64,000 bases of DNA, taken from the sequence record OL615011. The stretch is one strand, 5' to 3'. The DNA comes from Shigella phage vB_SboS_Gloob. Each line of letters begins with the position of its first letter. The first letter of the stretch is position 1. The notes beneath the pieces were generated by a model. That model worked only from the letters and a program-made list of their open reading frames with translations. It was not told the origin of the DNA and did no database searches. Shown one piece after another: positions 3,210-45,543 of the stretch. Position numbers and translations under genes: made by a program.

Positions 3210-3938
3210 TTACTTCAGGGCGCTCTTCAGATTATCAGAACCTATGTTGTTGATAACGCCACCAGCGCACAGGTCTTTAGCCCACTCAGACAGTACATTG
3301 GCGAACGAGAAGTTCAGACACTTGCTGACCATGTCTTGGATGTGGGCTAACTCTGAGGCAATACCATTGGCGATATCCTGACCGATTTGCGCCACCTGAG
3401 CAATAGCATCGTTGATATATCCGGTAACTTCGGCGGCCAGCGCCTGGATCTTTGCTAGGCCAGCGCTTACGCCCTGCGCAACTAACTCAGCCAGTTCGGC
3501 CATCTTGGCAGTAACAGTGCTGAGAGCACCCTCCATAGCCCCGATCCACTGGCGCCCAAGAGTCTGTATGACGCCGAAGGCATTGTTGATCAGATCACAG
3601 TTGGTCGGCTCGCGCTCGATTGACTTCAGGCCAGATTTGTACGACACGGAAGTCCCGATGCGGGAATACGCTTCGTTCACAGTCTGATCACCATAGTTGT
3701 TCAGCGTGGTGAGGCTGGTGTCGGCAGAGGTGAACATCGTGTTCGTTTCATTGAGTTTGGCTGTGGTTAGACCGCCTGCCGTCAGAGCGCCCTGGATTTG
3801 CGTATTTCCGGTGTTTGCCAGTGCAGCTGTAGTCGCCTTGCCGCTGGTGATTAAACCCTGAGACGTGCTGCTGAGGGACGGGAGAGGATTGTTAAATGCG
3901 TTACCCTGCTCAAGGGCGTCATAGATCTGTGCGTTCAT
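3210..3938 (-). CDS. hypothetical late protein, Ala/Gly/Thr-rich (243 aa)
   Basis: ORF track; start taken at MNAQIYD because the upstream in-frame ATG lies inside the promoter palindrome. Confidence 0.5.
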   Translation of the reverse strand: MNAQIYDALEQGNAFNNPLPSLSSTSQGLITSGKATTAALANTGNTQIQGALTAGGLTTAKLNETNTMFTSADTSLTTLNNYGDQTVNEAYSRIGTSVSYKSGLKSIEREPTNCDLINNAFGVIQTLGRQWIGAMEGALSTVTAKMAELAELVAQGVSAGLAKIQALAAEVTGYINDAIAQVAQIGQDIANGIASELAHIQDMVSKCLNFSFANVLSEWAKDLCAGGVINNIGSDNLKSALK

Positions 3939-40753: not shown

Positions 40754-41326
40754 ATGCACATCAACACTGCTATCACGAAACACATCATTCCTTTGTTAGA
40801 GAAATATGAAGGGAAGAAATCAAAGGATATTTCGTTTGAAGATATATCCGCCGAAGTGAAGCGCTTGACACGTAAAGAAGTCAATTTCCGCCGTGTCCCC
40901 CCATCTGCAGTAGATCGGGCAAAGTCAGATTTGAACACGGCTTCCACTTTCTCCTTTAATATCGATGCCACGGCGACATTGGTATCCGAATTAACGCAGT
41001 CGTCACAAGCCCGTCGCGATCGCTTCCGCCATTTATGTGTGGCCAACGACTACCCCAGCACCCGTGTCGGCATCAAGCTTGAAGCAATCCGCTCCGAGGT
41101 GTGCTTCACAGTGAACTACATCCTGGAGCCTGAAACCAGCAACATTTATTTCGCAGCCATCATCGGCTTCTATGGTACATCCATTAATGGTTGGGCTGAG
41201 CGCGTTGAATTAAAAGAGACTCTGAACAAACACAGCATCCCGTCCACCCATTATATGTCGCTGGCCGCCGCTCGCGAATATGTGTATCTGCTCGAGCGTG
41301 ATGTGAAGTTAAAAGTGGTAAAATAA
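40754..41326 (+). CDS. hypothetical protein (190 aa)
   Basis: ORF track; AAGGA SD. Confidence 0.5.
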   Translation: MHINTAITKHIIPLLEKYEGKKSKDISFEDISAEVKRLTRKEVNFRRVPPSAVDRAKSDLNTASTFSFNIDATATLVSELTQSSQARRDRFRHLCVANDYPSTRVGIKLEAIRSEVCFTVNYILEPETSNIYFAAIIGFYGTSINGWAERVELKETLNKHSIPSTHYMSLAAAREYVYLLERDVKLKVVK

Positions 41327-41383: not shown

Positions 41384-41530
41384 ATGTTTTACATGATGTT
41401 GCTCCTCATCCTCCTGATCGGGATTACCTTTACTCTCCTGGGTCTACCCGATCAGTCCGGTAAACAGTCGCCCACTTCGGTGCATCCGGTTTTGAGTGAA
41501 GGTTCGTCCGCACTGCTGTGGGTAGTGTAA
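41384..41530 (+). CDS. small hydrophobic peptide (48 aa)
   Basis: Strong SD GGAAGGGAGGG; MFYMMLLLILLIGITFTLLGL is a single TM helix; too short for the ORF track. Confidence 0.4.
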   Translation: MFYMMLLLILLIGITFTLLGLPDQSGKQSPTSVHPVLSEGSSALLWVV

Positions 41531-43413
41531 CTCAAAGAGGAGAGGACTTTTCAAATTAGCTGGGCTGCGGTAAAGTATTAAACGTGAGGCGAACAGCGCA
41601 TTGAGTTAGGCATCTAAAGCCGACCTCACTAATCCCAGTCTCAGGGGCATGCGTGAATAGAGGCGTGACATCCACCTTGCATGGTGTTAGTGGACGCACT
41701 GACCGTCGGAGAACGAAACTCCCTGTTGTAGCGTGATTAGCTCAGAAATAGAGAGCACCCCGTTGGCAAGTCGACACCAACACATAGGGGAGGTCGGGGG
41801 CGCTAATCTCCATCACGCCGACAACATTATGAGTCTTCACAGAGGGTTCATAATGTTGCGTCAAAGGGCAACACAAAGGTTCCTGTTGGTTGAATTAACT
41901 TGATTCATAGTTCCTGCTGATCTTCCCGGATTCGAAGGAGCACCAACAGGCGAGGCCGGATGCGTAAGTTCCGGCAAATCGATGGCGAGGTGGTGCATTG
42001 GTGACACGGGGTAGCGCCCAGAAGTGTGGTTCGATTCCACACCCTCGCCAACAAATTAAAGGGTTTTCAATAACGGGTTGTAGAGTATAGTTAACCCACT
42101 GAACGAAAAGCTGTTTGGGCATTAGACAAACACTTCGATGTGAACCCAGGACATGGCGTCTTGTGCTCAAACAGGTTTTCGTTCTCGTTGCTTGCGGCTT
42201 TGCGGGTTTTAAGAAACAGACCACAAAGATAAATGCAAATGATAACGCTTATCTGGCAGTAGCTTAACAGCTAAAACACCAGTGAGGTCTTCCGACTCCT
42301 CATAACGAAATTCGGCGCACTAAAATAGGCGGGAGGGTGTGATTAATAAGCTCCCGCCGACATCTGAGAGGGCACTTGATCGAGGTCGGTATCCGCTATA
42401 CGGGATGCTGTAAAATGAATCCACGGAGTGTCCTCCCAGATGTGACTCACAGCACATCAGTTTGCAGTTATGCAAGCTTCAATAAGTTAAAACACGCCTC
42501 AGGCGTTCTGGGATGAAGCCCTGAAAAGTGGAATCCCCAGGGCTGGCAATCCCTGTTAAAGAAGTAGCCGTGTGGGGGTCAGCCCCCCACAACGCAAAGT
42601 AGAGTCCTCTGGACATTGAACTTAACCCAAGGGTTGATTCACATGGTGAACGTTCCCGGCGGCGATAGTACAAGATGAGGGGTCATTGAAGTTCAGAGAA
42701 CTCTACTTTGCGGCAGGTACTGCAAAACAGTGATCATCCTGACAAGTGTGATCACTCTACGATACAAACTGAGTTCGGGCTATCAACCCATACCGTTCTG
42801 GCGGGTCACAAAATACCAGAGAACAAGTTTGCTATCGGCCAGCCTCGTTTGGTCTGAACGTTAGAGGACAAGTGCTGAAGTGTGACGAAGACACTGAAGT
42901 GCGGGTTGTTTAGTGAATCCTGCTAAGCGCAAGGGTTGAGTGGCAAGAACCACCTGAGGATAAGTCAACGCCATTATTCGCCATGATAATGGCATCGGGA
43001 GGCACCCGACACTAAACCGTTTGGCCTGGCGAAAGCAGGCAAGTATCTGGGGTCGATCACCTTATCCTCACCCAGATGCGGGTTGCAGCCTGGCTGCAAC
43101 TCTGATGGCTCTCAATATTCCATAATGTATATCGGTTGTGGATGACAGGTAAATGAGCGGAAAGGCGAGAGCCATCAGAGTTGTGACCAACCCGATCTTG
43201 CAAGCCCGTATCCCTGTATGGTCAAGACTTGCAAGTGGAAAGCCCTGGAAAAATAAACGCCTGTTGTGAGGCCACGGTGCAAGCCAATGACCAACAGAAG
43301 CGCATGCCGTGAGGCGCACAAAGAGGCCTGCATGAACTGATCATGCACAAACGGGATAAAGGGTTGACAGTCCTTGGTTGGTTGCACAATAATGTGTATT
43401 AGGAGCAACATCA
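41531..43413. other. ORF-free, hairpin-dense region; candidate structured ncRNA(s) or cis-acting DNA element
   Basis: No credible ORF on either strand; long perfect inverted repeats and reiterated GGGTTG motif (see findings). Confidence 0.5.
41949..42050 (+). other. tRNA-like element with canonical T-arm and acceptor 3' half but aberrant 5' half
   Basis: TGTGG-TTCGATT-CCACA then CCTCGCC pairing with upstream GGCGAGG; body does not fit a standard cloverleaf. Confidence 0.25.
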
Positions 43414-43635
43414 ATGAGTTATTTTGTATGTGTCTGTGATGTTGAATATTTTGATAAATTTGCTAGGGAATCTTTCTATTCTTTCTTACCGATCCAATCG
43501 TTTAAAACTGAATCGGAAGCAAATAAATCAATGGAACTAATGAGACCTCTTTACAGGAAGGAACTTGCTATTTTGCAGGATTCTGACCTAATAATCATGG
43601 GTAATAGGATCACAAGATCGGTGCCCAAGATATAA
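43414..43635 (+). CDS. hypothetical protein (73 aa) abutting tRNA-Met
   Basis: AGGAG SD; stop 6 nt before tRNA. Confidence 0.45.
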   Translation: MSYFVCVCDVEYFDKFARESFYSFLPIQSFKTESEANKSMELMRPLYRKELAILQDSDLIIMGNRITRSVPKI

Positions 43636-43641
43636 AATTTC

Positions 43642-43717
<76 letters not shown>

Positions 43718-44126
43718 TATTAAGGGGCGATAGTTTAAGGGATAGCTGTCCGGACAGCGAATCCTCATAGAGAACGGCTGGGCGGCCAAACCCAGCAGGT
43801 GAGGTGAAAAGCCTCAGACCCCGCCAAATTTGTGTTGAAGAGACGTTGGGTCAGAACCAACTCGCCCGAAAGGGGGATCGTATAGCGGTAATTATGCTTC
43901 GACACAACAGCATTATGGGGAGCACCGATGAGATGAGGGTTCGGGCGAGTTAAGCGACGGCCGATTAAGTCCTGTACTCTGTTCAAGGTGGTCTTAACCT
44001 CCCCACCAAATATTGTTGGACTGCCAGCAAGCTCCGGTCTACGGCAGGCGTGATGGGATCGCGGAATTCAAATACCGCCTTGGGAGCACCTAAATAAACC
44101 AGTTGTTCAATAAACAGTTGGTGAGT

Positions 44127-44327
44127 ATGATGAAAACGTTCGGTGATTTTATTGCTGAGTGGGATGGCCTCGCTACCGACAACAAAGAGATTGTCGAGTT
44201 TGTTGAAAAGCGAGGTGACAAGTGGGTTGTCCTTGACCACACCAAGACGAAGGTTCTTGGTACACATGACACCAAAGCTGACGCTGATGCCCAATTAAGG
44301 GCGATTGAAGCGAACAAGCACGGATAA
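44127..44327 (+). CDS. hypothetical protein (about 66 aa) abutting tRNA-Asn
   Basis: ORF track (track start is TTG at 44103; ATG at 44127). Confidence 0.4.
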   Translation: MMKTFGDFIAEWDGLATDNKEIVEFVEKRGDKWVVLDHTKTKVLGTHDTKADADAQLRAIEANKHG

Positions 44328-44886: not shown

Positions 44887-44970
44887 GCGGGAGCCATAGG
44901 GGTTGGACAGTAGCCGACTGATCATCGGCGACGATCACTGGACAGGTTCGAATCCTGATCTCCCGCTCCA
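44887..44970 (+). tRNA. probable tRNA-Ile (anticodon GAT) with atypical T-stem and long variable region
   Basis: Acceptor GCGGGAG/CTCCCGC, anticodon stem GCCGA/TCGGC with loop CTGATCA, T-loop TTCGAAT; geometry imperfect by eye. Confidence 0.4.
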
Positions 44971-45063: not shown

Positions 45064-45158
45064 AATTTGCGATCATCGCGGAAATCCCAGACGCGAGTGG
45101 AGGCCAGGGTGAAGACTGGCACAGTTCATCGACGGCAAAGATGGCTGTCTCCTGGAAT

Positions 45159-45224
45159 TGGGTGGCCTGAATGGTAGGGAAAGCGAGCCAAGCGTCGTGG
45201 GTTCAATTCCCACTCACCCAGCCC
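45159..45224 (+). other. truncated tRNA-like element (about 62 nt)
   Basis: T-arm GTGGG-TTCAATT-CCCAC and acceptor TGGGTGG/TCACCCA but only about 31 nt where D and anticodon arms should be. Confidence 0.25.
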
Positions 45225-45474
45225 CAGATGGAATGGGTCCATCATCGCAAATCATATTTTGGGCGTGACTTCCTGAAGAGTTAGAAGATGTGCATGTCGA
45301 CTCTCTCGTAATCAGGTGTTTAGGAAGTTAAGAAAATCGGAGCGAGGATGGTGAAATGCAAATAGCTTTCTCTACGCTTACGACTTCGGGTTCGATTCCC
45401 GACGCGCTCTCCCATAGGGCAGTACCAGTGCAAAGTGTGTAGTCTTTTCAACCCATCCCCATCGATGTGGCATA

Positions 45475-45503
45475 GCCAGGTAAGGAAACCTGGCTTTCTT
45501 TTG
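45475..45503 (+). terminator. rho-independent terminator ending the tRNA region
   Basis: GCCAGGT-AAGGAA-ACCTGGC followed by TTTCTTTTG. Confidence 0.7.
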
Positions 45504-45508
45504 TCCGG

Positions 45509-45516
45509 TATAAATA
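45509..45516 (+). promoter_or_regulatory. T4-type late promoter box TATAAATA
   Basis: Exact T4 late consensus about 28 nt upstream of ATG 45544. Confidence 0.4.
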
Positions 45517-45543
45517 GATCTGAACTTGTACAGGAGGTGTATC

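Follow-up and report, generated by a model that had tools for sequence, protein, structure and literature searches.

Between a gene for a small membrane peptide and the tRNA cluster of Shigella phage vB_SboS_Gloob (OL615011), a stretch of about 1.9 kb (the block, positions 41531–43413 of the window, as the 64,000 nucleotides (nt) analysed are called here) appears empty of genes, which raises the question of what the phage keeps there. It shares 94% identity with Shigella phage Ag3 and its relatives in the genera Agtrevirus, Kuttervirus and Taipeivirus (Ackermannviridae, ViI-like myoviruses). Judged from its sequence, the block is probably, with somewhat more weight for than against, an island of about 14 RNA cassettes on the tRNA operon, including a member of a widespread family of templates that resemble transfer-messenger RNA (tmRNA) and are most likely engaged by ribosomes or by SmpB.

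Coding status and structure of the block

To its left, the block is preceded by a conserved gene of 190 amino acids (aa) and by the 48-aa membrane-peptide gene, both of which match PHROG families. These two genes, the block and the tRNA cluster on its right all lie on the + strand. The longest open reading frame (ORF) within 41531–43413 has 109 aa and lies on the minus strand, and the four longest ORFs in the gap matched no PHROG or Pfam family; all four flanking ORFs (40754–41326, 41384–41530, 43414–43635 and 44103–44327) match PHROGs. A coding explanation of the block was rejected on the lack of such matches among its ORFs, in agreement with the original prediction that no credible ORF is present. 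The homologous gap is left blank in the annotations of Ag3, MK-13 and ECML-4, and automated annotations of relatives fill it with short minus-strand "hypothetical proteins". Annotation pipelines leave such cassette regions blank or place spurious ORFs in them.

The abundance of hairpins and complementary segments noticed earlier is likewise real. In 120-nt windows, the mean folding z-score (z) is −1.45 in the block, on either strand, versus −0.23 in its flanks, and the block holds long inverted repeats: I1 with 27-nt arms (42101–42127/42158–42184), I2 with 22-nt arms (42593–42614/42691–42712) and I3 with perfect 17-nt arms (43097–43113/43167–43183). Folding the natural units singly yields a chain of stem-closed cassettes with individual z values of −2.3 to −6.4, equalled by 0–3 of 200 shuffles. 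All strong helices in the block are local, each closing its own cassette. The sole long-range complementarity, I5 (41532–41548 with 42603–42619), is weak, at 76%.

An Rfam search of the window at a permissive expectation value (E ≤ 5) found no large RNA (GOLLD, ROOL, HEARO, OLE), intron, RNase P, 6S RNA or riboswitch, in line with the original reading, which saw no intron core or RNase P hallmark. At gathering thresholds and permissive E-values, over the window and 21 related loci, only tRNAs exceeded the threshold; below it, the block gave matches to tmRNA, STnc100 and tRNA. No + strand terminator was found within 41531–43413. The block is thus non-coding, densely structured, placed on the strand of the tRNA cluster and mostly unclassified by Rfam.

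Dense inverted repeats would also suit an element acting as DNA: an origin, a packaging site or a site of recombination, which had been proposed as alternatives, or a terminal repeat; the region is, moreover, mosaic between relatives, and the record of phage heyday starts inside it. However, the block contains no iteron-like direct-repeat array (only two-copy matches of 11–24 nt with 71–92% identity), and neither a change in GC skew nor an AT-rich unwinding stretch was found there. The "repeat_region" of heyday, a short (144-kb) record, is only 21 nt long. Compensatory changes that tolerate G-U pairs, a strand-specific tag frame, tRNA-like elements, an STnc100-like fold and promoters, all described below, point instead to RNA. 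The block shows no signature of an origin or packaging site, and a DNA-level role is the least probable of the explanations considered.

A tag frame without a start codon

When the block was compared with distant phages by BLAST, many unrelated genomes matched through one sub-segment of ~150–250 nt. This segment, at 42166–42376 on the + strand, is a tmRNA-like tag-template element, present as a single copy in the window and recognised by a covariance model with 190 bits (E ~1e-53). Its parts are as follows.

42175–42228, + strand: candidate pseudoknot 1 (PK1)
42229–42234, + strand: AUAAAU
42235–42264, + strand: resume codon and 10-codon tag
42265–42267, + strand: stop codon, in the loop of hairpin 42260–42273
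42253–42256 and 42279–42282, + strand: outer helix, CTGG with CCAG
42283–42315, + strand: pseudoknot 2 (PK2)
42318–42358, + strand: pseudoknot 3 (PK3), with the conserved loop GTGTGATTAATAA

Positions 42235–42267 read GCA AAT GAT AAC GCT TAT CTG GCA GTA GCT TAA, which translates to ANDNAYLAVA followed by a stop and has no start codon. The original prediction that the block holds no tmRNA tag ORF was therefore mistaken. In all 123 copies compared, the frame has exactly 10 codons and a stop (TAA or TGA), and its first codon is GCA or GCT. The other two frames meet stops at inconsistent positions; alternative frames, including one with an ATG in frame +1, were rejected because their length is not conserved. 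Among 30 distinct tag DNAs, the third codon position varies in nine of the ten codons, the first and second positions in four and six. In codons 1–3, variation falls on the third position, with the exception of one AAC-to-AAA change (N to K) and three GAT-to-GAA changes (D to E); codon 6 always specifies F, Y or V, and codon 7 is always CTG. The resulting consensus, A-N-[DE]-x-x-[FYV]-L-[AM]-[VA]-A, ends in LAVA or LMAA. Most copies carry AUAAAU ahead of the resume codon, and in those read by eye position −4 is always A and position −5 usually U.

These properties recall the template half of bacterial tmRNA (SsrA; RF00023, clan CL00001). The two share a 10-codon frame without a start codon that begins at GCA (Ala), AUA at −6 to −4, a hairpin whose loop holds the stop codon, and downstream pseudoknots; the candidate PK1 would correspond to the upstream pseudoknot of tmRNA. 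The tag of Escherichia coli tmRNA is ANDENYALAA, and the phage tag resembles it in the N-terminal AND, the aromatic or hydrophobic residue 6 and the hydrophobic C-terminus. The AUA matches the A84-U85-A86 context of E. coli tmRNA. The spacing of N, D and the aromatic residue matches the SspB-binding part of the E. coli tag, reportedly the subject of a study by Flynn et al. in 2001 (cited in PMC5587285). Conservation of the encoded peptide, together with the retained AUA context and this spacing, argues that the frame is probably decoded, or at least presented to the trans-translation machinery.

The LAVA and LMAA tag types each span several unrelated phage groups. Between the window and Ag3, 42235–42282 differs as a block (ANDNAYLAVA versus ANDDVVLMAA) within flanks that are ~94% identical. 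Both observations suggest that the tag and its hairpin form a sub-module that may be exchanged between phages.

Covariation of the template structure

The covariance model was built from 49 sequences with nested helices only, and 97 loci, 87 of them distinct, were realigned. Over the 87 distinct sequences, the hand-drawn structure has 91.9% of its cells paired and 17 pairs doubly compensated; none of 500 shuffles reached this, and slid controls gave at most 5 compensatory pairs. The outer tag helix (P5-outer) is 100% paired and switches from GC to AU in 27 sequences. Stem 1 of PK2, too, is 100% paired and shows compensatory changes; it is doubly compensated, as CAAGG/CCTTG, in an E. coli prophage copy that lay outside the model set and scores 200 bits. 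Stem 2 of PK2 is 99.7% paired in three types (CCGA/TCGG, CCAA/TTGG and CCAG/CTGG). In PK3, pairing reaches 100% in stem 1, where one position shows three pair types, and 97.5% in stem 2, where seven of eight pairs are doubly changed. Since PK2 stem 2 and PK3 stem 1 were absent from the model, they lend the pseudoknots independent support.

The PK3 loop UGAUUAAUAA (42337–42350) is invariant at eight of ten positions in the 49-sequence alignment. It contains AUUAAU, which is self-complementary and so would make a loop-loop (kissing) dimer possible; a conserved contact with a protein or RNA is the other possibility.

Spread of the element among phages

The core of the element matches 682 of 50,697 phage records (~1.3%) in at least six unrelated groups; it is found in Ackermannviridae, Felix O1-like phages, Suspvirus, T1-like (~47 kb) and N4-like (~72 kb) phages, phages of roughly 111 kb, and lambdoid prophages. 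The hosts are Salmonella, Escherichia, Klebsiella, Erwinia, Shigella, Citrobacter, Cronobacter and Serratia, and Vibrio and Aeromonas phages also carry it. The window copy is 100% identical in its core to that of Salmonella phage SKML-39, and a 24-nt pattern taken from PK2 recovered 112 loci in IMG/VR. Among the matches listed, the element has no annotation over it or only "hypothetical protein" calls. Carriers include the Felix O1-like, T1-like, N4-like and ViI-like phages used in therapy and biocontrol.

In bacteria, the element occurs in 137 of 5,426 complete E. coli genomes, in lambdoid prophages, some of them in O26 strains. The one O26 prophage examined has it downstream of pR' and tR', in the 1.07-kb gap that separates the gene for antiterminator Q from the holin gene. 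Across 100,044 species genomes, true copies were found only in Pseudocitrobacter and Pantoea, possibly prophage-borne, the remaining matches being due to chance. An origin as a piece of the host ssrA gene or as an attachment-site (att) copy was rejected, because the element is nearly absent from the species genomes and is found in late leaders or tRNA clusters, not beside integrases. At four of eight loci checked, tRNAs are called or annotated nearby, and the element lies on their strand; no tRNA is close to the N4-like copy or to the E. coli prophage copy.

Complementary long stems, GGTAAGRGCATT / AGTGCTCTTTCC, flank the element in lambdoid and T1-like loci and occur two to four times per locus (for example in L121, L112, L074, L056, L063 and, at 3423–3775, L124). 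They cap variable inserts, some of which consist of a D-arm-like hairpin and a T-loop hairpin, GGGTTCGAATCCC, resembling the elbow of a tRNA without an anticodon. These caps are closed, variable and often absent. In the window, the hairpins 42101–42184 and 42360–42443 are the equivalents of the flanking stems. The stems could, from their sequences, alternatively pair across the element.

The missing acceptor

Four Rfam tmRNA models (RF04321, RF01849, RF01850 and RF00023) match the window copy and copies from five independent lineages with 11–31 bits. These matches cover the template region, and the best of them (23.4 bits in the window, 30.8 in any homologue) stays below the gathering threshold of 47. 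ARAGORN, another check proposed with the original prediction, finds no tmRNA tRNA-like domain in the window at its default settings. It recognises the resume consensus and tag at relaxed thresholds only (85% for a longer extract, 80% for the first extracts) and then flags a "permuted" tmRNA. A scan of the whole window for a T arm with a 7-bp acceptor did not reveal a convincing tRNA-like domain of the Ala type (G3:U70); G:T pairs at 3:70 occurred only in distant, weak matches with non-canonical T loops and no CCA end. Modules read upstream and downstream in lambdoid, T1-like, Felix-like and N4-like loci were negative or inconsistent for such a domain, and the N4-like copy ends in a terminator without a tRNA-like part. 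A tblastn search of the window for SmpB and SspB homologues found none with the query sequences used.

The element thus departs from bacterial tmRNA in several respects. It has no G3:U70 acceptor stem, T arm in the right place or CCA end; its downstream pseudoknots are two and much smaller, not three; its tags end in LAVA or LMAA, not ALAA; it is phage-encoded in tRNA clusters or late leaders; and it reaches 11–31 bits against gathering thresholds of 47–84. It resembles the two-piece, permuted tmRNAs (RF04321, RF01849, RF01850) in that its best Rfam and ARAGORN matches are to permuted forms and that several lambdoid copies have a T-loop-bearing, elbow-like cap upstream, where permuted genes have the acceptor piece. 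However, the cap is closed, variable and absent in many lineages, its hairpin order is unlike that of an acceptor piece, and there is neither G3:U70 nor a processing loop. Because the defining tRNA-like domain is missing, the element is not filed here as a tmRNA; it would work like, or imitate, the template half of one.

Two papers on the tmRNA database list phage tmRNAs only in cluster C mycobacteriophages and in Bacillus phage G, besides the form found in mycobacteriophage DS6A, which is little more than the tRNA-like domain (PMC4131195, PMC11915505). The enterobacterial phage element is absent from their phage lists and discussion (PMC4131195, PMC11915505). No description of a template-only form was found in the papers and databases searched on phage tmRNA-like RNAs, and nothing relevant was found in those on Ackermannviridae transcriptomes. 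To our knowledge, an acceptor-less family of tag templates has not been described. DS6A is otherwise the only known half-tmRNA, likewise a phage-encoded tmRNA derivative. It demonstrates that a phage may retain one half of the molecule, but the half it retains is the opposite, tRNA-like one. What defines tmRNA is that it unites a tRNA-like with an mRNA-like domain. A version with only the mRNA-like half would be the mirror image of the DS6A form, and one that appears horizontally mobile, with selection at both the peptide and the structure level.

One Felix-like copy has an unusual neighbour. In Escherichia phage REP10, a "tRNA-OTHER" (1664–1746) directly follows the tmRNA-like element. Read by eye, its acceptor has the pairs C1:G72, G2:C71 and G3:U70, with A73 as discriminator and the CCA encoded, and its anticodon loop is of the Arg(UCU) type. 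An acceptor of alanine identity would thus sit on an unusual body (25 bits against the Rfam tRNA-Sec model). In other Felix-like phages, an ordinary tRNA-Arg occupies this place.

What the template may do

The proposal that follows from the frame and its context is that the tag-template RNA is most likely read by ribosomes, or engaged by SmpB and the trans-translation machinery, late in infection; the phage would then provide a tag of its own, with LAVA or LMAA at the end. The missing acceptor domain means that its function cannot be canonical. Whether 42166–42376 is a working "orphan" template, decoded without an acceptor of its own, is a more tentative matter, possible and not probable. Such a template might form the coding part of a split tmRNA, with a tRNA-like cassette of the phage or an RNA of the host acting as acceptor in trans; or translation might begin, without an initiator tRNA, at the Ala codon beside the pseudoknot, giving rise to free ssrA-like peptides. 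If true, many enterobacterial phages would rewrite or jam the host ssrA/SspB/ClpXP tagging late in infection with LAVA or LMAA tags of their own. The element poses a concrete puzzle of mechanism and gives access to the ways in which phages respond to ribosome rescue and to proteolysis directed by ssrA.

Several results weigh against engagement of the element as a template. The tmRNA family gave no match at its gathering threshold in the window or in 16 loci. At ARAGORN thresholds of 80–95%, 14 of 20 loci yielded inconsistent domains made of borrowed tRNA halves or terminators, and six yielded none. Across the copies, no consistent tRNA-like domain with G3:U70 and a CCA end accompanies the element, and canonical trans-translation cannot work without an acceptor domain. 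Part of the third-position variation in codons 8–10 is also explained by covariation of the hairpin. In candidate PK1, S2 (CUUUG/CAAAG) is 83.9% paired with few informative changes, and the S1 columns do not align consistently between lineages; this pseudoknot is plausible, with conservation speaking for it more than covariation does. The Ackermannviridae of Dickeya lack the element, which is thus dispensable for the family. Finally, transcripts, their ends and their processing are all inferred from sequence.

A decoy is an alternative. By mimicking the template region and pseudoknots of tmRNA, the cassette might bind and titrate SmpB, ribosomal protein S1, RNase R or another partner of tmRNA, so that fewer phage proteins translated from truncated late mRNAs would be tagged and degraded. 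In favour of this, the element lacks the acceptor domain on which canonical function depends, and the strongly conserved PK3 loop looks like a binding surface. However, SmpB binds mainly the tRNA-like domain of tmRNA, which is exactly the part missing here. A decoy also leaves the codon-periodic variation, the fixed length of 10 codons, the conserved stop and the LAVA and LMAA types unexplained. There is a converse precedent, in that a molecule similar to DS6A inhibits E. coli tmRNA, perhaps by titrating SmpB (PMC4131195, PMC11915505). On balance, the decoy is rather unlikely, and a template with an acceptor in trans or a non-canonical entry is preferred to it.

A chain of exchangeable cassettes

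The original prediction proposed a large, unclassified structured RNA, of which the non-coding, structured and mostly unclassified character stands, and the single molecule does not. Around the tmRNA-like element, the following features were delimited.

41545–41720, + strand: M0, conserved structured segment (29 pairs, 4 compensatory, in 12 homologues; slid controls 0–1)
41731–41819, + strand: pseudo-tRNA (degenerate tRNA-like), with the 7-bp acceptor GCGTGAT/ATCACGC and a D arm
41819–41860, + strand: M1, near-perfect 19-bp hairpin (z = −6.4, equalled by 0 of 200 shuffles)
41882–41950, + strand: M2, 9-bp closing stem with two inner hairpins (z = −3.0)
41955–42053, + strand: hairpin 41955–41975 and anticodon-arm-less tRNA-like cassette 41984–42053 (z = −3.1)
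42064–42091, + strand: promoter-like site, TTTTCA, 16 nt, TATAGT (9 of 12 consensus positions)
42101–42184, + strand: long hairpin with the 27-nt arms of I1 (z = −3.9; 3 compensatory pairs in 13 distinct homologues)
42360–42443, + strand: M7, 17-bp closing stem with an inner hairpin (z = −4.7)
42452–42592, + strand: M8, multi-hairpin segment (z = −3.3, equalled by 0 of 200 shuffles)
42593–42712, + strand: M9, 22-bp closing stem (I2) around small hairpins (z = −4.6)
42729–42870, + strand: M10, three hairpins (6 compensatory pairs in 10 homologues; slid controls 0–2)
42908–43017, + strand: STnc100/PasD-like multi-branch cassette closed by GTTTAGTG/CACTAAAC (RF02076, sub-threshold)
43023–43095, + strand: M12, hairpin (z = −2.3)
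43091–43187, + strand: M13, 19-bp closing stem on the perfect 17-nt repeat I3 (z = −5.75; 3 compensatory pairs)
43195–43360, + strand: M14, highly conserved promoter-proximal segment (5 compensatory pairs in 19 distinct homologues)
43364–43393, + strand: sigma-70-type tRNA-operon promoter, TTGACA, 18 nt, AATAAT (11 of 12 consensus positions)

In a pairwise comparison of the window with seven Ackermannviridae, sub-blocks are present, absent or replaced between relatives, with borders at or near the ends of stem-closed cassettes. The tRNA-like cassette (41980–42055) is missing as a unit in MK-13 and EspM4VN, 42910–43076 is missing in EspM4VN, and ~42362–42721 is replaced in ECML-4. The M7 stretch is variable or replaced in MK-13, EspM4VN and ECML-4, and M9 has no aligned counterpart in Mansal or ECML-4. 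Dickeya phage LIMEstone1 keeps 42041–42135 and 43179–43391 only, the latter 95% identical, amid unrelated adjacent DNA. M2, on the other hand, lies in a part of the block conserved across Agtrevirus, Kuttervirus and Taipeivirus. Because relatives gain, lose or replace sub-blocks at cassette borders, because one cassette recurs alone elsewhere and because there is a promoter-like site inside, the block appears to be a chain of about 14 independent, stem-closed, + strand RNA cassettes gained, lost and swapped as units, not one RNA.

A single RNA of ~1.9 kb, comparable to GOLLD or ROOL near phage tRNAs, would explain why structure is dense over the whole length and adjoins tRNA genes, and I5 could serve it as a long-range contact. 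Against it stand the lack of any large-RNA match in Rfam, the purely local nature of the strong helices, the weakness of that sole long-range repeat, the deletion or replacement of individual cassettes in close relatives, and the occurrence of one cassette by itself in other phages, with a promoter or terminator of its own. This explanation is very unlikely, only marginally less so than a role as DNA.

For each cassette, covariation was assessed with RNAalifold on distinct Ackermannviridae homologues, with slid alignments as controls. M0, M5, M10, M11, M13 and M14 show 3–6 compensatory pairs versus 0–2 in the controls, so the covariation among homologues that had been suggested as a check is found in these six cassettes as well as in the tmRNA-like element with its 17 compensatory pairs. 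The remaining cassettes stay paired in homologues with too little variation to test their structure, which weakens the case for the island as a whole; M1, for instance, is 100% paired across 8 distinct homologues without informative variation. Folded alone, the window sequences of M0 (z = +0.96) and M10 (z = −1.5) are less striking than their alignments, that of M0 being not unusually stable.

It might still be argued that the block is a graveyard of decaying tRNA genes, tmRNA fragments and scars of homing endonucleases or illegitimate recombination, without function. Sub-threshold tRNA-like elements, mosaic presence and absence, HNH genes inside the block in relatives and the failure of annotators to find anything there would all fit. 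Yet the tmRNA-like element keeps compensatory changes and an intact frame over at least six unrelated phage groups and prophages, several other cassettes have compensatory pairs as well, 43179–43391 is 95% identical in a Dickeya phage, and relatives retain ~1.9 kb of block despite packaging limits. Debris is accordingly improbable; it ranks, on the present sequence comparisons, below the decoy, and the decoy below the template with a trans acceptor or non-canonical entry.

HNH homing-endonuclease genes are inserted within the homologous block of the Kuttervirus-like phages pSal-SNUABM-02, SS3, vB_SentM_Phi_10 and SeF3a; the RNA island is thus a landing site for mobile genes.

Individual cassettes and their transcription

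Besides the template, the other cassettes may comprise a divergent sRNA (small RNA) of the STnc100/PasD type, decayed or anticodon-less tRNA-like elements and further structured RNAs. The pseudo-tRNA 41731–41819 has an oversized anticodon region and a non-canonical T arm and scores 24.2 bits against the Rfam tRNA model (gathering threshold 29). The cassette 41984–42053 has the acceptor GGCGAGG/CCTCGCC, the T arm GTGTGGTTCGATTCCACAC and C3:G70, and 41984–42049 reaches only 19.4 bits against tRNA-Sec. ARAGORN, at default settings or with -ps, calls neither 41731–41819 nor 41984–42049. In M2, a likeness to a tmRNA 5' end (GCTGAT...GGATTCGA, 41918–41947) was noted by eye only.

The 3' strand of the long hairpin 42101–42184 runs into a conserved GUUUUCG motif, the 5' edge of the tmRNA-like element, and its counterpart in lambdoid and T1-like phages is the set of variably capped long stems ahead of the element. 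M7 lies directly 3' of the element, at the place of "module B" in those phages.

The right-hand end of the block was drawn too far, since its last 50 nt form the tRNA-operon promoter and lie outside the structured part; the first tRNA begins right after this promoter in Ag3, MK-13 and Mansal. On the other hand, ORF-poor territory rich in tRNA-like elements extends past the block end (43718–44100 and 45064–45540). Positions 42057–42080, which surround the promoter-like site, are paralogous to the promoter region of the tRNA operon at 43357–43380, with 71% identity (motif TAAAGGGTT...). Felix-like and T1-like copies of the element have a promoter, TTGACA-17-TATAGT or TAGATT, directly upstream, at the same relative place as 42064–42091, and in the N4-like copy an intrinsic terminator follows ~260 nt later. 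Transcription of the + strand would proceed by read-through from upstream genes, supplemented by the weak internal promoter at 42064–42091. The long closing stems would be suited to endonucleolytic release by activities of the RNase III, RNase P or RNase E type.

The STnc100/PasD-like cassette

The cassette 42908–43017 matches the STnc100 model of Rfam (RF02076) with 38.6 bits (E = 2e-6), below the gathering threshold of 47, over model positions 30–148 of 206. It folds with z = −2.7, has 3 compensatory pairs and is absent as a unit from EspM4VN. STnc100 and PasD are Hfq-associated sRNAs of lambdoid prophages; PasD is located near the Q antiterminator gene, and sRNAs of its type lie upstream of prophage holin-lysozyme genes (bioRxiv 10.64898/2026.05.13.724894). 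The cassette shares their multi-branch core and closing stem. It differs in its sub-threshold score, its partial cover of the model and the lack of a following intrinsic terminator, and in lying in the tRNA region of a virulent Ackermannviridae phage instead of the Q-lysis position of a lambdoid prophage.

In T1-like and lambdoid loci, an STnc100-like fold (seen by eye, below Rfam thresholds) lies just 3' of the tmRNA-like element, and the order in the window is the same. The two may therefore travel together as neighbours. The "empty" DNA beside phage tRNA genes and the lambdoid gap from Q to holin, the site of STnc100 and the Pas sRNAs, would then draw on a shared pool of exchangeable RNA cassettes.

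The neighbourhood of the tRNA cluster

The tRNA cluster of phage T4 contains the stable small RNAs species 1 and 2 (rnaC, rnaD), presumably released by tRNA-processing enzymes. Like them, the cassettes of the block are structured non-tRNA RNAs located with, and oriented like, phage tRNA genes; the island is, however, far larger and modular, and the likeness is one of setting, with no relation seen in sequence or structure. Taken as a whole, the block adds a new case to a loosely known group, the non-tRNA RNAs of phage tRNA regions.

Further peculiarities were observed within the tRNA cluster. Where the window has a 73-aa ORF (PHROG 27256) and tRNA-Met (43414–43717), Ag3, MK-13 and EspM4VN have an odd 80-nt "tRNA-Ser(tga)", so that cassettes have been exchanged where the tRNA operon begins. 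From tRNA-Met to the next ORF follows a non-coding spacer of ~385 nt (43718–44102), which starts with GGGGCGATAGTTTAAGGGATAGC, like the 5' half of a tRNA, is conserved in Ag3 and has no Rfam match. At 44887–44970, ARAGORN calls a tRNA-Ile(gat) at lowered thresholds only; the clusters of MK-13 and ECML-4 have an annotated tRNA-Ile.

After tRNA-Ser, an ORF-poor stretch of ~480 nt (45064–45540) harbours two tRNA-like elements. The first (45159–45221, 63 nt) has the T arm GTGGG-TTCAATT-CCCAC and no anticodon arm. The second (45261–45410, 150 nt) has the 7-bp acceptor GGGCGTG/CGCGCTC, a canonical T arm and two oversized arms; it was considered as the missing tRNA-like domain of the template and rejected, being confined to Ackermannviridae and not co-occurring with the template elsewhere. 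Both elements are conserved in Ackermannviridae only, and Klebsiella relatives annotate a tRNA-Gln there.

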